NCBI GenBank assembly: GCA_963668185.1
Contig: OY764162.1
Coordinates: 852,754-916,753, forward strand
Origin: Dehalococcoidia bacterium
Lineage (GTDB): Bacteria; Chloroflexota; Dehalococcoidia; Lucifugimonadales; G963668185
Reading direction: 5' to 3'
Length of the DNA: 64,000 nt
The notes below the pieces were generated by a model that did not search any database, was not told the DNA's origin, and saw nothing but the letters and a program-made list of their open reading frames with translations. The position numbers and the translations under genes were made by a program. This document shows positions 14,395 through 24,338 of the stretch, one piece after another; position 1 is the stretch's first letter; every line of letters begins with the position of its first letter.

Positions 14395-14525
14395 GGGAAA
14401 CCCCGTTCGCCCTGAGCCTGTCGAAGGGCCGAATTCCGTCCACCCTGACCCCACCGTAGGGGCGCTTCGCGAAGCGCCCTTTCCCCGTTCGCCCTGAGCC
14501 TGTCGAAGGGCCGAAGCGCCCCTCC
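14395..14525. repeat. Cluster of palindromic interspersed repeats (B-A-B)
   Basis: TTCGCCCTGAGCCTGTCGAAGGGCCG occurs twice, at 14406-14431 and 14487-14512, flanking GGGGCGCTTCGCGAAGCGCCC at 14459-14479. Confidence 0.9.
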
Positions 14526-16269: not shown

Positions 16270-16752
16270 TCAAAACAGCTTTTCCCCGGGCAACTCCGAC
16301 GCCTGCCGGATCCATCCCGCCACCAACTCTTCGTCTAACTGGTCATCCTCGTGAATATGGAAGTAGCGCACGTCGTCGTGCTTGGACTCGACCGGCGGAA
16401 GCGGACTGAGAGACGCGCCATTGAGGAAAGTGACCTTGATGTACCTCGTAAAGCAATGATAGCCGAGGAACCAGCCCTGGCCTTCGACGCCGTAGAAGGG
16501 CGTGTTCCACCTCACGGCCTTGCGGACGTCGGGCACGGTGCGCACGATGAGGTCGTCGAGGCGGCGCCCTGCGTCGCTCTTCCAGCCGGGCATCGCGGCA
16601 ATATACGCCTGCACCGGGGCGTCGCCGTCGGCCTTCGCTATCTGCGGGTTGCCGCCTGAAAGGAGCGCCGGCTTCGCGCCGTCCCCCTTGGTATCGGCGT
16701 TCTTTGCGGCTTTCGCTGGCTTCTCAGGCGGCTTGCGGACCACTGCGTTCAC
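16270..16752 (-). CDS. DUF1801 (YdhG-like) domain protein
   Basis: 'VQAYIAAMPGWKSDAGRRLDDLIVRTVPDVRKAVRWNTPFYG'. Start trimmed to the GTG at 16752 to avoid overlap with the divergent gene; the start is uncertain. Confidence 0.5.
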   Translation of the reverse strand: MNAVVRKPPEKPAKAAKNADTKGDGAKPALLSGGNPQIAKADGDAPVQAYIAAMPGWKSDAGRRLDDLIVRTVPDVRKAVRWNTPFYGVEGQGWFLGYHCFTRYIKVTFLNGASLSPLPPVESKHDDVRYFHIHEDDQLDEELVAGWIRQASELPGEKLF

Positions 16753-16854
16753 TCCAATTCGCGCTTCACGCGTATGATACCCTCTTAGAGTATCAAAGCC
16801 ACCCGAAAAGAGCGCCCGCAAATGCGCCCGCACCCAATCGCGAGGTCCTCACAA

Positions 16855-17715
16855 ATGAAGCCCCTAATCGTTGCCTTACTGCTGATATGCCTTGCGGTTG
16901 CCGTGTCCGGTTGCGGCGACTCCGAGCCGGCCCCCGAGGGCGGTGACAGCGTAGAACAGACCGCCTCGAACGGCGGGCAGTCCGCGGCATCCTCCGAAGA
17001 CAGTTCAGACGACGACTCGGACGGCGGACAGTCATCGGCGGCATCCTCGGAGGACAGTTCAGACGACGACTCCGACAGCGACCATTCGTCGGCGTCTTCC
17101 TCGGAAGACAGTTCAGACGACGACTCCGACAGCGATCATTCGTCGGCGTCATCGGGAGACGACGACTCGGACAGCGACCATTCGTCGGCGTCATCGGGAG
17201 ACATGGACTCCGACAGCGACGTCAACGGCGACTCCGGCGAGCACGCCTCGGATGACGACGATGTCGTGGCCTTCGAGAACCCGGGAGCCGAAGGGACGCC
17301 TTTCGATAGCAGCCGGAACGACGCGCTCGCCGGCGCCCAGCCCCTTGACGTCGTGACCTGGACCAACGGGCCGACCCTCTCACTGGGCGCGCTGGAGGCG
17401 AGCGGCACGCTCAGCGAGGGCGCGATGCTCTTCAACCCGATGGTGGACGGCGAGGGCGCGGGCTTCATCCTCTACCACAAGAATGTGCCGGATGAGCCGC
17501 TGCTAGTGCTGCTTCCCGACCTAGGCCCCATGTACATCTGGGACACCGACCACACGGTAGCGGACATGGAGCACGAGTTCGAAGGCTCCACGTTCACGTT
17601 CACGGCCTACTCCCCGATGTTCTTCGACACAGGCCCAGGCGACCTGGAACTCCGCGTCTTCGGCTACGACGCGAACGGCGCCGACAGGCTGCTGTCGGTA
17701 GCAACCGTAGAGTAG
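16855..17715 (+). CDS. Lipoprotein with an acidic Ser/Asp-rich repeat linker and a ~105-aa C-terminal domain of unknown function
   Basis: Lipobox '[13 protein letters not shown]'. Repeated '[19 protein letters not shown]'. The C-terminal domain is duplicated at 20117-20431. Confidence 0.75.
17401..17715. repeat. 315-bp direct repeat, copy A (3' end of the 16855-17715 gene)
   Basis: Aligns base-for-base with 20117-20431 with about 10 mismatches; 4 of 105 amino acids differ. Confidence 0.9.
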
Positions 17716-17755
17716 CGCCGCAGGCGGAGAAACCACCCGTCGGCATTGTTCGACG

Positions 17756-20065
17756 ATGCTAAGGAACCGAATCATCGTGTTAGATTCCCGCATCCGCTGG
17801 CCGGCAATCGTGTCGGGGGCTCTATTCATCGTCGCCGTTCTGAACGCATGCGGCGATCCAACGCCAGAGCCCACAACGAATCTGACTCCAGGAGCGACAG
17901 CTACACTCATGGCAACGGCGGTGCCCGCACTGACACTCGAGCCTGCATCAACACCCGCGCCGACTGGTGCTCCCACACTTACGCCGGAACCGACGGCAAC
18001 TCCTACGCTTACGCCGGAACCGACGGCAACTCCCACACCTACGCCGGAACCGACGGCAACTCCTACGCTTACGCCGGAACCGACGGCAACTCCCACACTT
18101 ACGCCAGAGCCGACGGCAACTCCCACACCTACGCCAGAGCCGACGGCAACTCCCACACCTACGCCAGAGCCGACGGCAACTCCCACACCTACGCCAGAGC
18201 CGACGGCAACTCCCACACTTACGCCGGAACCGACGCCCGATTCGGTGTTGCCGGCGCCGCCATCCGACCTTGATTTAGACACGTTCTACAAGAAGTATCT
18301 GGACGCTGACGGGCTTCCTATCGTTTCTTCCGCCAAGGTGCCCGACCAGGCCCTATTTCGTGCTAGGGACATCATAGATGAAATGCTCGGCAATCGGCCC
18401 GAGTTGCTAGCAACAATCGCGGGCTCAGGACAAGTTCTGGCAATCGCGGCGCGATCGGAGGTTCTTACTGATATTCCAGGCTACCATGACATCTACGAGC
18501 GGTTTCCTAACGTCAACTTCGATTGGAATGAAAGGCACCGTGGCGGGGGCATAAGCGGTGGAACCATAAGCGAACCAACCGTTGTCTGGGAGCAAAATGT
18601 ATTATGCCATGAGAATGACGTATTCCCGAACGAGGACATCCTCGTGCATGAGTCGGCGCATACTGTGCTCAATCTAGGAATCAAGCAGCAGGAGAGAGCT
18701 ACGGAGTTTCTGGCGCGGCTTGACGCCGCATACCGTAGTGCGATGGACTCCGGCCTCTGGGCTGGTGCCTATGCGGGCGAGAATGTGGATGAGTACTGGG
18801 CAGAGGGCGTCCAGTCATGGTTTGGCTTGAACGACTGGGCTATCCCTGCCAACGGAGTTCACAATCAGATCAACACCCGGCACGAACTAGAGGCTTACGA
18901 TCCGGCCTTGGCCAACTTAATTCGAGAGGTTTTTGGCGAAACGACCATCTCCTCCACGTGTCACGTCGTAGCGGCATCAGTGGATATTCAAGAGGAGCAT
19001 ACAATTGAATTCCTCGGTGATGTATCTCCTGCCAAGAAGGCCGAAATCCGCGCATTGTTCACTGATCTTCGGAATTTCTTTGACGATTACGCTGCTGGCA
19101 AATCAGCACCAGAGCCTCTTCTTGTAGCTTCCTATGATCAAGAGGCGCTGCAGAGAAGATTCAAGGAGATAGAGGGCTACGAACACGCAGGTTCTATATG
19201 CGGAGTCCGATCAGTTAGTCTTTACATTTCCCTGGAGCCGGGATGTGGCAGACCTGCTGTATTCGCACACGAATACTTTCATCACCTGCAAGGAGCAACA
19301 GCGCCGGGCCACCTGCTGCCCGATTATGGCGAAGGATATTCTACCCAGGGTCCATGGTGGTTGACCGAAGGAGCAGCTGTATACAGTTCTCTGTTGTACA
19401 CTGTCGCGAGCGGTATTGAGAGTTACGATGTTGAGCGCGACCGAATGATAAGAAAGGCTTGGGAATCTACTCGCAACCTAGTTGATCTGGAACTGGCAGA
19501 GAGTTTCTTCAATGAACATCCGTTTGGTTCTTATGAAGTTGGATTTCTTGCGGTGGAGTGGCTTGCTCGACATTCGAGCGACGCCTCAATCCTTCGCTAC
19601 TACGAGATACTGCCTCAACACGATACATGGCAGGCAGCGTTCGAGAACGCCTTCGGCATGGCAGTTGACGAATTCTATGAGTCTTTCGAAGGGTATCGCG
19701 ACGGCGTGGCTCCGACCAGAGAAGAATCCTTCAGGATTCAGGGCCGAGTGGTTGGCCCTGATGACCAGCCGTTGGAGGGCATCGGTCTGTGGGCCTGGCA
19801 GGGAGATGCTAATAACAGTGGGGTTGGCAGTACACGCTCGGATGGCAGCTTTGTCTTAGTCGTGCCGGGTGGTTCATTCACCTTGGACGTTTACGCTGAT
19901 TTTGTCGCTGGATGTACCTTTGTTGGCTGGCTAGGCCCGGATGGATTCACCACGTCACATAAAGAAGCCGTTCGTGTGCAAGTGAACGGCGCCAACGTAA
20001 GTGGCATCGTGATCAAGCTGCCCAAGCAACTGGACCAGCTTCCGTTCATCGAACACTGCTCGTAA
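17756..20065 (+). CDS. Lipoprotein with a Thr/Pro repeat linker, two HExxH metalloprotease-like modules and a carboxypeptidase-regulatory-like C-terminal domain
   Basis: Lipobox 'VLNACGDP'. ([10 protein letters not shown])n linker. 'LVHESAHTV' and '[11 protein letters not shown]'. C-terminal '[15 protein letters not shown]...[16 protein letters not shown]'. Confidence 0.75.
17975..18240. repeat. 30-bp tandem repeat, about 8.5 copies, coding for the TP linker
   Basis: Unit ACGCC(G/A)GA(A/G)CCGACGGCAACTCC(C/T)AC(A/G)C(T/C)T repeats head-to-tail with no spacers. Confidence 0.95.
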
Positions 20066-20431
20066 CCCGCATCATCCTCGGAAGACAGTTCCGACGACTC
20101 CTCCGGCAGCGACACTAGCGGCACGCTCAGCGAGGGCGCGATGCTCTTCAACCCGATGGCGGACGGCGAGGGCGCGGGCTTCATCCTCTACCACAAGAAT
20201 GTGCCGGATGAGCCGCTGCTAGTGCTGCTTCCCGACCTGGGCCCCATGTACATCTGGGACACCGACCACACCGTCGCCGACATGGAGCACGAGTTCGAAT
20301 TTTCGACGTTCACGTTCACGGCCTACTCCCCGCTCTTCTTCGACACAGGCCCAGGCGACCTGGAACTCCGCGTCTTCGGCTACGACGCGAACGGCGCCGA
20401 CGCCCTGCTGTCAGTAGCAACGGTGGAGTAG
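20066..20431 (+). pseudogene. Start-less duplicate of the S/D linker plus C-terminal domain of the 16855-17715 gene, in frame directly behind the TAA of the protease gene
   Basis: Codons from 20066 read [31 protein letters not shown]... in the same frame as 17756-20065. There is no signal peptide and only an internal ATG at 20141. Confidence 0.6.
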
Positions 20432-20448
20432 CTCCCCGACCTCAACCG

Positions 20449-20889
20449 CTAGCTTGCCTCGCTGCTTGGAGCAGAGCCGCTTGTCGTCGCGCCCAATGCT
20501 TCGACTACTTCCCTGATCCGCGCCAGACTTGCGGTTGCGTAGTCGGTCGCTTCATACCGCTGTATCTGCTGCTCCTTGAGCCGGAGTCGCTTGGCCAGAT
20601 CTTTCTGGCTCAAGCCTTGAGAAATGCGGGCCTTGATCAGAGTGTACGGTAGTTCGGCAACCACGTTCAGATCCCCCATCTGAAAGTTGCCAGCCTTCAG
20701 AGATTCGTATTCGCGCAACTCTCCCTCAAGGTCTGTTAGCTGACTCCTCAAGGCGTCCTCTTGAGCCTTTGCGATGATGGGATGAACTCCATCCGTCTCA
20801 CCGGAACGCCGCCTGAGACTGTCGAGAGTCTGCGAAAATCGAACTGCCTGCGCCTTGGTGATCCGATATTGCCGCTCGTTCTTGATCAT
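20449..20889 (-). CDS. XRE-family HTH protein, putative antitoxin
   Basis: 'LIKARISQGLSQKDLAKRLRLKEQQIQRYEA' is an HTH_XRE motif, with an N-terminal coiled extension. Its start overlaps the upstream gene's stop by 4 nt. Confidence 0.75.
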   Translation of the reverse strand: MIKNERQYRITKAQAVRFSQTLDSLRRRSGETDGVHPIIAKAQEDALRSQLTDLEGELREYESLKAGNFQMGDLNVVAELPYTLIKARISQGLSQKDLAKRLRLKEQQIQRYEATDYATASLARIREVVEALGATTSGSAPSSEAS

Positions 20890-21326
20890 GCGAGGTCTCC
20901 CAAGTCTATGGCGATAATCCCTTTGAGCCTCCCGGTATCCTTGTCCGTCTGGAAGAATTCAAGAAACGAAAGACCGCCCGTGTCGGCAATGATCGAAGCG
21001 GGGAACAGTTCTCCCATGTACTTGGCCTTTTGCGCCGCTCTTCCCTCGTCAAACGTCAGGAGCACGGGATCGAGTGCAGTCGGATCCACGCCAGCCTCTT
21101 CCCAGCAGGCGTCATAGTCGTTGGGCATAGCCTTGCGCGTCACGAAGCTCCCATTGAGATAGACGGTTTTGCAGCCTGCATCCTTCAAGTTATCTATGGC
21201 GGCCCTGAACCCCGTCGCGAGAAGCAATCTCCATGGGTTGTTCCCAAATCTATCCATCAACTCGCTCCAGCCAGCCCAGTGGACTCCCGGCGGTAGAAAC
21301 CCGTCCGTATCAAACTCGGGTATCAC
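20886..21326 (-). CDS. Minimal nucleotidyltransferase-fold protein (DUF6932-like), putative toxin
   Basis: 'VYLNGSFVTRKAMPNDYDAC' fits the pol-beta NTase G-S-x10-D-x-D signature. GTG start. Toxin-first order with 4-nt overlap to the HTH gene. Confidence 0.55.
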   Translation of the reverse strand: MIPEFDTDGFLPPGVHWAGWSELMDRFGNNPWRLLLATGFRAAIDNLKDAGCKTVYLNGSFVTRKAMPNDYDACWEEAGVDPTALDPVLLTFDEGRAAQKAKYMGELFPASIIADTGGLSFLEFFQTDKDTGRLKGIIAIDLGDLA

Positions 21327-21327
21327 A

Positions 21328-21347
21328 ACACAATAATACTATTGTGT
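21328..21347. promoter_or_regulatory. Perfect palindrome ACACAATA-atac-TATTGTGT immediately upstream of the NTase/XRE operon (candidate operator)
   Basis: 8-bp arms with a 4-bp spacer, 2 nt from the GTG start. Confidence 0.45.
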
Positions 21348-21363
21348 GTACGCCGCATCAAGA

Positions 21364-22494
21364 TGTACTCGTTCAGTACATATGGGACAGTTTTGGCGAG
21401 ACCATGTCCGGGTGGTGATGCTGAAGATACTCGGCCGGAGTGCGCCCGTCCAGTGAGTGGTGTGGGCGGACAGTGTCGTATAGGCGCTCCCATTCCAGAA
21501 GCGCTCTGTTGAGTGGCGCCATCTCGAGGTCGCCGTCATACAGTTCGTAGAACTCCTCAGTGTGGGTACGCTGCGCCCTCTCTACGTGGCCATTGAGCTT
21601 CGGGGATCGCGGCGGCAACACAAACAGTCTGATCCCGTAGTCCCGGCACGCTGCCTCGAACTCAGCCATGAACTCAGAACCCCCATCGACCTGCACCGCC
21701 TTGATCGGAAACGGAAAGCGCCGACGCATTGAGTCCAGGAACCGCGCCGCCAACGTCGACGTGGCTCGCGTGTGTACCTCGATCACGTCCCACCGCGACA
21801 CCACATCCCTCGCAGTGAAGTGCTTGAGCACCATACCCGGAAGGGGGCGGACATCCAGCGTGTCCACCTGCACTATGTCGCCCGGATTGACGGCCTGGTA
21901 CTCCCTGGGCTTGCGCACCGCATAGGGACGGGCACGGGCGCGCTTACGCGCCGCTACACCCTGTCGCGGAGGTTCCTTGAGTACGCCGCGAACCTTCAGA
22001 CTGGCCAGGATGCGGCCCACCATCGAAGTGGACACCTGCCAGCCCTCTCGCCTCAGCATCACCACCAACTTGTCCTTGCCCCAGCGTGGATACCGCTCCC
22101 TCATCTCCATCACCGCCTCGGCCAACTCCACGCTCCACGTAGGACCGCGTACCCTGTGAGGACGACGGCTCTTGGCACACAGGCCGGCCGGTCCCTCTTC
22201 CCTCAGCGCCCTGTCCCACCTGTACAGCGTCGAGCGGGCCATGCCCAATGCTTCAGCCGCTTCGGAGCCGGACAGTCCCCGCCGTCTCAGCGCCTGCCAG
22301 CAGTTCACCATGCGCAATCGCTCCTGCGCTTCGGCAGGCAGGTCTGTCAGTGTAGCCTTGGCAAGCTGGTAGAATGGCTTGGGTAGACCTACTACCCGCA
22401 TACAGGGACCTCCTTGGTTTGTCTCACCCAAAGGATGGTCCCTTTCTCTTTCCCTTACAACTCCCCCTGTCTCACATCTATCTGAACGAGTTCA
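21364..22494 (-). mobile_element. IS481-family insertion sequence, copy 1 (1131 bp)
   Basis: Ends TGTACTCGTTCAG / CTGAACGAGTTCA form a 13-bp imperfect IR. Flanked by a 5-bp direct duplication CAAGA (21359-21363 and 22495-22499). Sequence-identical to 42282-43412. Confidence 0.9.
21373..22401 (-). CDS. IS481-family DDE transposase (HTH plus rve integrase core)
   Basis: ATG preceded by AAGGAGG. '...LSGSEAAEALGMARSTLYRW...' (HTH) and 'DIVQVDTLDV...VQVDGGSEF...NGHVERAQRT' (DDE core). Confidence 0.9.
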   Translation of the reverse strand: MRVVGLPKPFYQLAKATLTDLPAEAQERLRMVNCWQALRRRGLSGSEAAEALGMARSTLYRWDRALREEGPAGLCAKSRRPHRVRGPTWSVELAEAVMEMRERYPRWGKDKLVVMLRREGWQVSTSMVGRILASLKVRGVLKEPPRQGVAARKRARARPYAVRKPREYQAVNPGDIVQVDTLDVRPLPGMVLKHFTARDVVSRWDVIEVHTRATSTLAARFLDSMRRRFPFPIKAVQVDGGSEFMAEFEAACRDYGIRLFVLPPRSPKLNGHVERAQRTHTEEFYELYDGDLEMAPLNRALLEWERLYDTVRPHHSLDGRTPAEYLQHHHPDMVSPKLSHMY

Positions 22495-22544
22495 CAAGAA
22501 CGACACGCGCCCCGGCCTCAACCGCTAGCCCCGGCGCGGTCGCG

Positions 22545-24338
22545 TCACTCGCCGATGCCCTCGTACCACCCGGCCCCGAAGACCAGGTTGCCCCGGCGCA
22601 CGACCCACGCGTGCTTGCGCGCTTCCTGCCCCGTCTCCGGGTGGGTGAACAGGTAGCTGACCCACTCGCCGCCACCCTCCTCGGTGACCGCGGCGAACGC
22701 CTTCCCCAGGTCGAAGCCGCTGGAGTCGATGCGCTCGCGAGTCGTCCCCACCCTCTCGGGGTGTAAGGGGTTGGCCGCGGCGTACAGATCGCCGCCCCGG
22801 TCCTCCAGGATGAAGACGTACCACGGGCCGTCCAGGCTCTCCGGCGAGTTGTAGCGCTCCAGGGTAGCTTCCATGCCGTGGTCTTCGTGCATCGTGAGCG
22901 CGCGGCCCACCAACAGACGCGCGTACTCCGCCGGTTGCTCCTTCGTTGGCGGCGGCGCGTACCAGCCGCTGGCGAAGATCAGCCCGTCCTCCAGCGCCGC
23001 GTAGTAGTTCTTGACCTCCTCGACCGCCGAGTGGAGCGGGTTCTCCTCGTCCACGCTGGGCGAGGCGATGTAGTTGCGAACGAAGACACCCTCAGGCGTA
23101 GCCCTCATAAGGTCGGCGGCATAGAAGTACCCCGTGTCGTCGTACGCCTCCCTGTACGTCAGGTCCTGGCCTACGGACTCCGCCGCCGGGTGGGCCAGCA
23201 CAACGCCTTTCTCGGCGTCCAGGATGAAGGTGTACCAGCGGCCATCGACGCTCTGCGGCGAACTGTGGTAGGCGATGGTGGCGTCGTACCCCTCGGCGCG
23301 GTAGCGTTCGACCGCGCGGTTCACGGTCGCCACCGTGAAATGGGCCTGCTCGCACTTGGACGGCAGCAAAGAGTGGTGCTCGGGCGGCTCGTGCCAGCCG
23401 GAGCCGATGATAATGTTGCCCCTGCGCACGGCCCACGAGTGCCTGGCCTCGCAGTTGCCGCTCGCCGGATTTGTGAAGTAGTAAGACTTCAGCCACCTGC
23501 CCGCTTCCGTGACCTCTAGGAACTCCGGCCCGAAGCGGTTGCCCACAAGGTCGAATCCTGCCCGCCCCCGTACGTTCCGGCCCACCAGCTGCTTGGTCGT
23601 GGGATGAGCCAGAAACGTCCCGTCTGAGTCGATCACGTAAACGTACCATTGGCCATCAACGCTCTCCGGGTCGTTGTACTTGCGAAGCAGCGCGTCCAGG
23701 CCCTCGACGTCGTACACGTCCACCGCGTCCTGCACGAACCACTGCGTATAGCCCGCCGGGTCACCGTCCTTGGTGGGCAGCGGGACGACGTTCTCGTACC
23801 AGCCGGACCCGAAGATCAGCCCGTCGTGGAGCTTGAGCCAGGTGTGCTTGTCCCCCTCCTCCACGGGCGTGTCGCCGTCGTAGGTCCGGTAGAAGTAGCT
23901 CACCCACTGCCCTTCCTCCGTGGTCTTGAGCATCTCCGCGCCGTAGGCGTAGCCTCTGGGGTCCCGCCTCTGGGCGGACTTCGCGCCCAGCAGCGCCTGG
24001 TTCGGATGCAGCGCCAGCTCATCGACGCTCGTGTCGATGATGAACAGGTACCAGCGTTCGACGGCGCTCTCATCGGAGAAGTAGTGCTCGAAGGTCTTCT
24101 CCCTGCCCTCCGAGACGTACATGTCGATGGCCCGCTGGACGTAGGCCTGTGTGAACTCCGCCGGCTGGCCGGTAGTCGGGGCCGCCGCCGCCGGAGCCTG
24201 GTCCACCGCCGCGGGAAGAGCCGGGGCCGTCGCCGTCGCCGTTCCGAGCAGCGCGACAACGCCAACCGCAAGCGCGGCAAGACCCACGACAAACGCGGCC
24301 ACGCCGATCAGACCGGCATATTCCCGTACAACTCTCAA
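22545..24338 (-). CDS. Membrane-anchored extracytoplasmic protein made of four tandem single-Cache (sCache_2-like) domains
   Basis: N-terminal TM 'LIGVAAFVVGLAALAVGVVALLG'. The pattern 'WY(L/V)F(I/V)(I/L)D...LAHP...G...W(V/L).Y...K..W......(L/I)(I/V)(F/I)GSGW(Y/H)E' occurs four times. Confidence 0.7.
   Translation of the reverse strand: MRVVREYAGLIGVAAFVVGLAALAVGVVALLGTATATAPALPAAVDQAPAAAAPTTGQPAEFTQAYVQRAIDMYVSEGREKTFEHYFSDESAVERWYLFIIDTSVDELALHPNQALLGAKSAQRRDPRGYAYGAEMLKTTEEGQWVSYFYRTYDGDTPVEEGDKHTWLKLHDGLIFGSGWYENVVPLPTKDGDPAGYTQWFVQDAVDVYDVEGLDALLRKYNDPESVDGQWYVYVIDSDGTFLAHPTTKQLVGRNVRGRAGFDLVGNRFGPEFLEVTEAGRWLKSYYFTNPASGNCEARHSWAVRRGNIIIGSGWHEPPEHHSLLPSKCEQAHFTVATVNRAVERYRAEGYDATIAYHSSPQSVDGRWYTFILDAEKGVVLAHPAAESVGQDLTYREAYDDTGYFYAADLMRATPEGVFVRNYIASPSVDEENPLHSAVEEVKNYYAALEDGLIFASGWYAPPPTKEQPAEYARLLVGRALTMHEDHGMEATLERYNSPESLDGPWYVFILEDRGGDLYAAANPLHPERVGTTRERIDSSGFDLGKAFAAVTEEGGGEWVSYLFTHPETGQEARKHAWVVRRGNLVFGAGWYEGIGE

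Follow-up and report, generated by a model that had tools for sequence, protein, structure and literature searches.

The window considered here is the whole 64,000-nucleotide stretch analysed from the chromosome of a Dehalococcoidia bacterium. An intact lipoprotein gene (gene A) is followed in it by a protease gene, by a short Ser/Asp-rich (S/D) leader and by a repeat of the gene A 3′ end. The segment within gene A is called copy A, and its duplicate behind the protease gene copy B. Coordinates are collected in Table 1.

Table 1. Features of the lipoprotein-protease locus, in window coordinates.
Feature	Position	Strand	Description
Lipoprotein gene A, intact	16855-17715	+	286 aa from ATG 16855; ORF list, 286-aa form present in protein collection
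Ser/Asp-rich 54-nt repeats of gene A	about 16926-17230	+	S/D repeat families D3/D4/D6
C-terminal β-sandwich domain of gene A	17257-17712	+	~150 aa; AF2 model
Repeat copy A	17401-17715	+	last 104 codons of gene A plus TAG; repeat search, alignments
Spacer	17716-17755	+	40 nt, gene A TAG to protease start; unique in genome; A/B homology ends at its left edge
Protease lipoprotein gene	17756-20065	+	769 aa; TAA 20063-20065, native stop as judged from homologues
Protease 3′ flank	20066-20075	+	~9 nt CCCGCATCA, matching CCTGCTTCC in L029; overlaps S/D unit start (GCATCC); joint J1
S/D repeat unit	20069-20113	+	86-88% identical to gene A units at 17042-17135; same frame as gene A
Filler bases	20114-20116	+	ACT; joint J2
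Repeat copy B	20117-20431	+	apparent 5′-truncated remnant; domain residues 49-152 of 152, plus TAG
96-aa ORF within copy B	20141-20431	+	called in public gene annotations; no signal peptide, domain incomplete
23-nt direct repeat	20431-20453		starts at last base of copy B TAG; repeat D11

The lipoprotein gene and its partial copy

Gene A encodes a signal peptide with the lipobox VSGC, then the 54-nt S/D repeats and the C-terminal domain; an alternative start at the upstream ATG 16822 would give 297 aa. This architecture is common to 62-63 homologous clusters (50-83% identical). Homologues align over residues 1-150 of the 152-aa domain query, and family members carry either one domain or two complete tandem domains. 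With its signal peptide and Cys, its Ser/Asp/Glu-rich linker and its domain, gene A is a full member of the acidic-linker lipoproteins of the Dehalococcoidia and other Chloroflexota. Copy B departs from that family: it has no lipoprotein signal, little of the linker and none of the first 48 domain residues.

The domain is modelled by AF2 as an Ig-like β-sandwich (pLDDT 91, pTM 0.85), with strands at residues 12-15, 33-42 and 45-52 and a helix at 19-23. The sequence-only reading had proposed such a prediction as a way to recognise an anchoring or sorting module, and no specific module of either kind could be named from it. The family is uncharacterised, without a match in the Pfam copy searched. 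Comparison of the domain profile with the PDB by sequence gave low-complexity matches only, Foldseek against the PDB gave a weak likeness to Ig V-domains (TM 0.43-0.46, E about 1e-3), and the NCBIfam search gave just a low-complexity S/D match to ClfB, far under its cut-off. A profile-guided search of JGI metagenome contigs found no relatives of the domain. In the collections searched, this lipoprotein family was seen almost only in Chloroflexota MAGs; it is a by-product of the analysis that may merit more attention than the duplicate itself.

The recurrence of 17401-17715 at 20117-20431 was borne out by repeat search, pairwise alignment and whole-genome BLAST (94.6% identity, E 7e-140), and these are the only two copies of the tail in the 2.78-Mb genome. 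The homology starts abruptly at 17401/20117 and ends one base (C) beyond the common TAG stop. Seventeen nucleotides differ, not the ~10 first counted; the accompanying count of 4 amino acid differences was correct, and at the protein level copy B matches the last 104 residues of gene A at 96% identity. The S/D-rich leader described ahead of copy B is indeed present and consists of one repeat unit like those of gene A, the limits of the match lying at 20069/20073 (BLAST). Translation of 19976-20434 agrees with the reported frame: the S/D unit and copy B share that of the protease, with TAA 20063-20065 as sole separator, and the frame stays open for 121 codons past this TAA.

Copy B had been described as devoid of a signal peptide and of any plausible start. 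The former holds, and no lipobox was found either; the latter does not, given an in-frame ATG at 20141 with GAGGG 5 nt upstream. In copy A, this ATG encodes an internal Met. It is the start taken by gene callers, and the 96-aa product is already in NCBI/ENA-derived collections. Lacking a signal peptide and part of the domain, the annotated ORF is probably a spurious call, i.e. a fragment rather than a gene.

A foreign protease gene with its own stop

The 769-aa protein comprises a TP-rich linker, a core of ~590 aa with two HExxH motifs, and a CarboxypepD_reg/TTR-like β domain (weak Pfam matches only). From these motifs, it is a putative double-HExxH zinc metallopeptidase of an unnamed family. 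Peptidase M9 (collagenase) was tried and rejected: PF01752 reached 19.0 bits, below its cut-off of 26 (E 9e-4), over the C-terminal part of the model only. The low-GC protease core occurs behind many different N-terminal architectures and, like the lipoprotein family, is a by-product that may merit more attention than the duplicate.

The G+C content of the genome is 64.2%. GC3 is low across the whole protease gene (0.55-0.56), compared with 0.82 in gene A, about 0.88 in the tail copies and 0.885 in copy B. By its composition, the protease gene is foreign and appears horizontally acquired, and both tail copies look native.

Ten homologues of the protease, 61-80% identical, were read at their C-terminal ends. 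Seven stop at the identical residue (...CS*), and the stops of the remaining three lie only a few residues away. The ending ...LP[RF][IVA][EAG][WH]CS* is common to P0066-P0070, P0072, P0075 and the gene of genome G026. The codon used at that position is TAA in the window and in L029, TAG in L030, and TGA in L008 and L032. All the architectural variation in the family is N-terminal. In the closest homologue, L029, ~9 nt past the stop are in common with the window, and divergence sets in where the S/D homology begins. We conclude from these comparisons that TAA 20063-20065 is the protease's own conserved stop; the gene should not be annotated as interrupted.

Fusion to the domain, a check suggested by the sequence-only reading, was looked for in two very large collections, and no protein joining the domain to such a protease was found. 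Among 1.84 billion representatives, 63 clusters match the domain; these comprise proteins of 63-463 aa, the majority small lipoproteins, and five larger proteins with multiple repeats, and none of the 63 has the protease architecture. No hit came from a word search that used the read-through product as query and targeted the size range 490-1559 aa. In species-representative genomes, none of the 35 domain loci has the protease core within 4 kb, and in the two other genomes with both genes (G026, 2.99-Mb MAG) these are unlinked, with over 1 Mb between them. Searches of three same-genus genomes did not find the domain; synteny with them stops at the NCS2 permease (window ~16250), and they provide no empty-site comparison. 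Neither the DNA downstream of copy A nor that downstream of copy B matches the flanks of the closest lipoprotein orthologues (L031; G026/L004), and an exact search of JGI metagenome contigs for joint J1 gave no match.

Copy B as a probable rearrangement remnant

In the AF2 model, the three strands and the helix listed above fall wholly or mostly within the first 48 domain residues, so that copy B is missing three to four strands and a helix. A near-invariant Gly, present in at least 90% of homologues, is changed to Phe in copy B by GGC>TTT, and no σ70-like promoter was found in 17300-20700. Truncation, loss of the parental signals and a position not conserved in relatives, three marks of a gene remnant, are present. 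Copy B is apparently a truncated, non-functional remnant of the S/D-repeat lipoprotein gene, and would yield no useful expressed product.

Because the tail is preceded by the native, conserved stop of an acquired protease gene, the arrangement is an ordinary rearrangement scar and not a split or read-through protein. Of the explanations put forward in the sequence-only reading, a duplication leftover tied to insertion of the protease module is thus the one favoured by the evidence. Probably, copy B was left when the foreign gene was placed beside the lipoprotein gene through microhomology joints. The protease gene, which spans about 2.36 kb and brings a signal peptide, a linker and a stop of its own, now lies between intact gene A and a patchwork in which one S/D unit precedes the last 104 codons of the lipoprotein gene. 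Three joints delimit the pieces. At J1 (about 20069-20075), the protease 3′ flank meets the S/D unit in a GCATC(C) microhomology; at J2, this unit meets lipoprotein codon 194 with the three filler bases, skipping about 170 nt of gene A (17230-17400) that include the first 48 residues of the folded domain; J3 lies just beyond the TAG, at the end of the A/B homology. Such a pattern is typical of illegitimate, microhomology-mediated recombination or of template switching, either of which would have accompanied acquisition of the protease. Alternatively, single-crossover integration of a circle carrying the fragment could produce the same layout. We infer this order of events and this mechanism from the joints; the simple models each require at least two steps, or a donor already bearing the fragment.

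The locus resembles the remnants known to flank DNA acquired by microhomology or Campbell-type events: a truncated copy of a native gene lies beside foreign DNA, the joints show microhomology and filler, copy B is devoid of a family-fitting start and signal peptide, and the arrangement is absent from relatives. It differs from them in that the duplicate ends within one base of the stop and both joints are in frame. If copy B is a remnant, its tail falls in the protease frame by chance (1 in 3), and keeping the frame both at the S/D-to-tail joint and in the protease-to-S/D relation has a probability of about 1 in 9, which argues against this reading. The lack of a clear excess of decay in copy B also counts against it: relative to two outgroups, 3 codons are derived in copy B versus 7 in copy A, counts too small to separate relaxed from purifying selection, and the frame is intact. 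The pairwise A/B dN/dS is roughly 0.35 (a hand count on small numbers), with the copy B frame open. Read as a remnant, the locus provides a clean, datable example of a foreign gene patched into a Dehalococcoidia chromosome at microhomologies, leaving a partial duplicate of the neighbouring gene.

Other explanations and the downstream insertion

The differences between the two copies affect 12 codons, are clustered (codons 52-54, 62-63 and 96-103) and comprise three multi-nucleotide codon changes, which look more like exchanged tracts than independent point mutations; moreover, copy B is nearer to the outgroups than copy A is. Both observations would suit a pilS-like silent donor for homologous recombination with, or gene conversion of, the gene A 3′ end; the intact frame and the ORF reported by gene callers would also suit expression of the 96-aa ORF alone. 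We consider either proposal unlikely. The cassette is single and differs by just 4 amino acids, neither a recombinase nor a recombination signal accompanies it, and none of the 35 domain loci in other genomes has such a cassette beside this gene family; the 96-aa product, for its part, would have neither a signal peptide nor a third of the fold. The silent-cassette idea was weighed and rejected on these grounds. There is likewise only a slender chance that copy B is alive, as a promoterless partner in tract exchange or through low-level translation on the protease mRNA, by re-initiation at ATG 20141 or by read-through. A live exchange partner would explain both the clustered multi-nucleotide differences and the more ancestral state of copy B.

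An assembly artefact, in which lipoprotein 3′ ends from two strain haplotypes were concatenated, deserves mention as the genome is a single-contig MAG with an estimated contamination of 4.3%, and the copies differ by 5%, as is typical of strain variants. It is very unlikely, because concatenated haplotypes would not create the specific joints observed (S/D unit, ACT filler), and 2.4 kb of unique sequence lie between the copies.

Low-level or programmed read-through of the TAA, adding the S/D linker and the partial domain to some protease molecules, had also been proposed; in its favour are the continuous frame and the 121 codons left open after the stop. Programmed read-through is known in some viruses and eukaryotes, and in bacteria from selenocysteine insertion at UGA; among bacterial stop codons, TAA is in general the one least prone to leak. 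The locus shares with such systems the open in-frame stretch behind the stop. It differs from them by its TAA, by an extension that is not conserved, by the incomplete domain (two thirds of the β-sandwich only), and by the lack of both a suppressor tRNA and a known stimulatory element: none of the 51 tRNAs found by ARAGORN in the genome has the ochre-suppressor anticodon UUA, and the Rfam search over 16500-22600 gave no match. The protease-tail arrangement was found in this genome only, and therefore nothing indicates selection for read-through. Without any fused homologue either, the proposal found no support and is highly improbable.

Almost no credit can be given to a recent nonsense mutation, in which a sense codon such as TCA became TAA in a protease that once ended in an S/D linker and domain: the TAA does line up, in frame, with TCA (Ser) in the S/D unit when the leader is laid on the gene A units, and the frame is continuous across it, but homologues end at or near the same residue with three different stop codons, the nearest one has the same bases after its stop, no fused relative was found, and the appended piece is an incomplete domain. 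The related suggestion of a cassette-borne stop is correct insofar as the stop belongs to the incoming protease gene; no once-longer protein was split by it. Finally, a surface-protein gene whose 3′ end is repeated almost identically, as non-genic sequence, a few kb away recalls the template and variable repeats of diversity-generating retroelements (DGR). This candidate was rejected: only 5 of the 17 differences involve adenine in copy A, the others including T/C, G/C, C/G and GGC/TTT changes, and a Pfam scan of seven neighbouring ORFs, among them those for the HTH protein, DUF6932, the IS481-type transposase and a Cache protein, showed no reverse-transcriptase domain.

The 23-nt direct repeat that starts at the end of copy B has a partner at 22507-22529 (91% identical). 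The pair brackets a DUF6932/HTH gene pair and an IS481-family element, a later insertion adjoining copy B.

The duplicated tail and its frame

The tail of the S/D-repeat lipoprotein gene (gene A) recurs behind the gene of a putative zinc metallopeptidase lipoprotein (the protease), and this second copy, copy B, is the scar of an ordinary rearrangement, a shortened duplicate of the neighbouring gene that stands in frame behind a native stop by happenstance. The repeat, found with the ORF list, repeat finder, pairwise alignment and BLAST, corresponds to the final 104 codons and TAG of the 286/297-aa lipoprotein gene, with 94.6% identity. The recurrence and the 4 amino acid differences of the sequence-only reading were recovered, but its count of about 10 nucleotide differences has to be raised to 17. 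Exactly two copies of the tail are present in the whole 2.78-Mb genome (BLAST). In the pairwise alignment, homology starts abruptly at 17401/20117 and ends just beyond the common stop (TAG plus one base, C). The short S/D-rich stretch seen earlier in front of copy B was found again, and matches individual 54-nt S/D repeat units in intact gene A at 86-88% identity (repeat finder, BLAST). Translation of 19976-20434 reads through this unit and copy B, ending ...VE*; both are therefore in the protease frame, parted from it only by the TAA, as already described.

Positions of the features discussed, in window coordinates
Feature	Position	Remark
33-nt direct repeat	14401-14433 / 14483-14515	perfect
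~110-nt element	14402-14512	the 33-nt repeat belongs to it
Gene A	16855-17715	+ strand
~150-aa domain	17257-17712	in gene A
Copy A	17401-17715	tail of gene A
Proposed foreign segment	17716 to about 20072	starts directly 3′ of gene A TAG
Protease gene	17756-20065	769 aa
Protease core	18290-20065	~590 aa, two HExxH
Protease stop	20063-20065	TAA
S/D unit	20069-20113	5′ of copy B
Proposed joint J2	20114-20116	filler ACT
Copy B	20117-20431	duplicated tail
96-aa ORF	20141-20431	inside copy B
Partner of 23-nt direct repeat	22507-22529	

The 12 codons that differ between the copies were polarised with two outgroups, L031 (83% amino acid identity) and G026 (76%). Copy A has the derived state at 7 of them (5 synonymous, L>M, A>R) and copy B at 3 (V>A, G>F, one synonymous), 2 being ambiguous; thus decay of copy B is not visibly faster. 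The differences fall in adjacent codons (52-54, 62-63, 96-103; 17443-17709 versus 20159-20425), with three multi-nucleotide replacements (GGC/TTT, ATG/CTC, AGG/GCC). For this small set of 12 codons, allelic divergence imported by recombination would explain the clustering no less well than separate point mutations.

Alignments to homologues span residues 1-150 of the 152-aa C-terminal region in gene A, which is more than the last 104. AlphaFold2, given 38 homologues, models this region (pLDDT 91, pTM 0.85) as a beta-sandwich of ten strands and two short helices. Copy B begins at domain residue 49 and, on this model, is an incomplete domain, without strands 12-15 and 33-42, helix 19-23 and most of strand 45-52. 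Its GGC>TTT change puts Phe in place of a Gly that 90% or more of the aligned homologues share. Foldseek returned only a weak Ig V-like resemblance (TM 0.43-0.46), and Pfam, NCBIfam and PDB sequence searches gave no specific match; there is therefore no basis for naming it an anchoring or sorting module. The 96-aa ORF is listed among the predicted proteins of NCBI/ENA-derived collections, where it shares a 90%-identity cluster with the intact 286-aa lipoprotein; this CDS of public gene calls is most likely spurious, an annotation artefact.

The protease gene and its stop

Among the explanations first offered, a leftover of duplication is the one to which the incomplete domain, the native protease stop, the acquired-looking protease gene and the native composition of copy B all point. 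GC3 is 0.55 in the protease core and 0.56 in its signal-peptide and TP-linker part, compared with 0.82 in gene A and 0.875 and 0.885 in the two tail copies. The whole gene, core and N-terminal part, therefore looks acquired and copy B looks like native DNA; the matching N-terminal value argues against a mosaic of native N-terminus and foreign core. The core lies at 49-58% G+C in a sliding-window profile (64.2% genome-wide).

In the window and at four other loci (L008, L029, L030, L032) the core has 53-57% G+C; it is below its local context (58-65%) in three of those four, the exception being L029, with surroundings at 54%. It is found behind very different N-termini (TP linkers, LRR plus TolB-like repeats, CARDB, a 540-aa extra region), and looks like a horizontally spreading module.

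A search with the core gave full-length relatives at 55-80% identity, 10 of which were read as proteins, the G026 gene also from DNA. Their architecture varies solely N-terminally (extra domains, LRR, CARDB, TolB-like repeats). Seven of the 10 (61-80% identity) have the same final residue, ...LP[RF][IVA][EAG][WH]CS*, P0067 being identical to the window protease over its last 17 residues, and the remaining three stop no more than a few residues away from this point. The homologous stop codon is TAA in L029, TAG in L030 and TGA in G026 and L032. Judged from these sequences, the window TAA is the native stop. The proposal that a recent nonsense mutation split a longer protein fails on the same grounds, and the TCA-to-TAA alignment that lends such a mutation its plausibility is a coincidence.

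Joints and flanks

About 9 nt directly after the stop are common to the window (CCCGCATCA) and L029 (CCTGCTTCC), beyond which L029 diverges and the window runs on into the S/D unit, which starts GCATCC in gene A; thus the joint between protease and lipoprotein DNA lies a few bases past the stop, at a short microhomology. In the proposed patchwork, the protease flank would be joined to the S/D unit at GCATC(C) (J1), the S/D unit to codon 194 (J2), and a third joint (J3) would lie just beyond the copy B TAG. Microhomology-mediated template switching would leave such a layout, as would integration, by a single crossover, of a circular molecule with an S/D-tail fragment on it. A 23-nt direct repeat begins at J3; between it and its partner lies a later insertion, a DUF6932/HTH gene pair plus an IS481-type element. 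Orthologue flanks match the downstream DNA of neither copy, and synteny with same-genus genomes stops at the permease gene.

The ~110-nt element, which lies in the gap that separates the aldo-keto reductase gene from the permease gene, has dozens of matches in the same-genus genome G003 (72-77% identity), some in tandem arrays; its 29-nt ends are identical. It may belong to a REP/MITE-like repeat family.

Fused relatives and read-through

No protease fused to the domain, as sought on the earlier suggestion, was found. With the 152-aa region as query, HMMER run in full over 1.84 billion representative proteins matched 63 clusters (50% identity), none with the protease architecture: 58 are of 63-463 aa, the longer ones read combining a signal peptide and Cys with an acidic Ser/Asp/Glu linker and the complete domain, single or as a tandem pair, and five are larger multi-repeat proteins (507-4984 aa). 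A word-based search using the read-through product, targeting the tail and proteins of 490-1559 aa, gave no match. Scanning one genome per prokaryotic species yielded 35 domain loci (L034-L068), nearly all in Dehalococcoidia/Chloroflexota MAGs, none with the protease core within 4 kb. The two genes are more than 1 Mb apart in both other genomes with close copies of each, and a search of three same-genus genomes did not reveal the domain. This small family is uncharacterised; in L052, L067 and L068, all Dehalococcoidia MAGs, the lipoprotein domain is broken into two or three tblastn pieces, either long-read-assembly frameshifts or genuine pseudogenes.

Low-level read-through appending the domain finds no support, as the extension is conserved nowhere, no UUA anticodon occurs among the 51 tRNAs of the genome (ARAGORN) and Rfam has no match within 16500-22600. 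ARAGORN also called two tRNA-Sec genes (anticodon TCA) outside the window, at G000:C1:766476-766576 and 2184642-2184740 of the genome under study.
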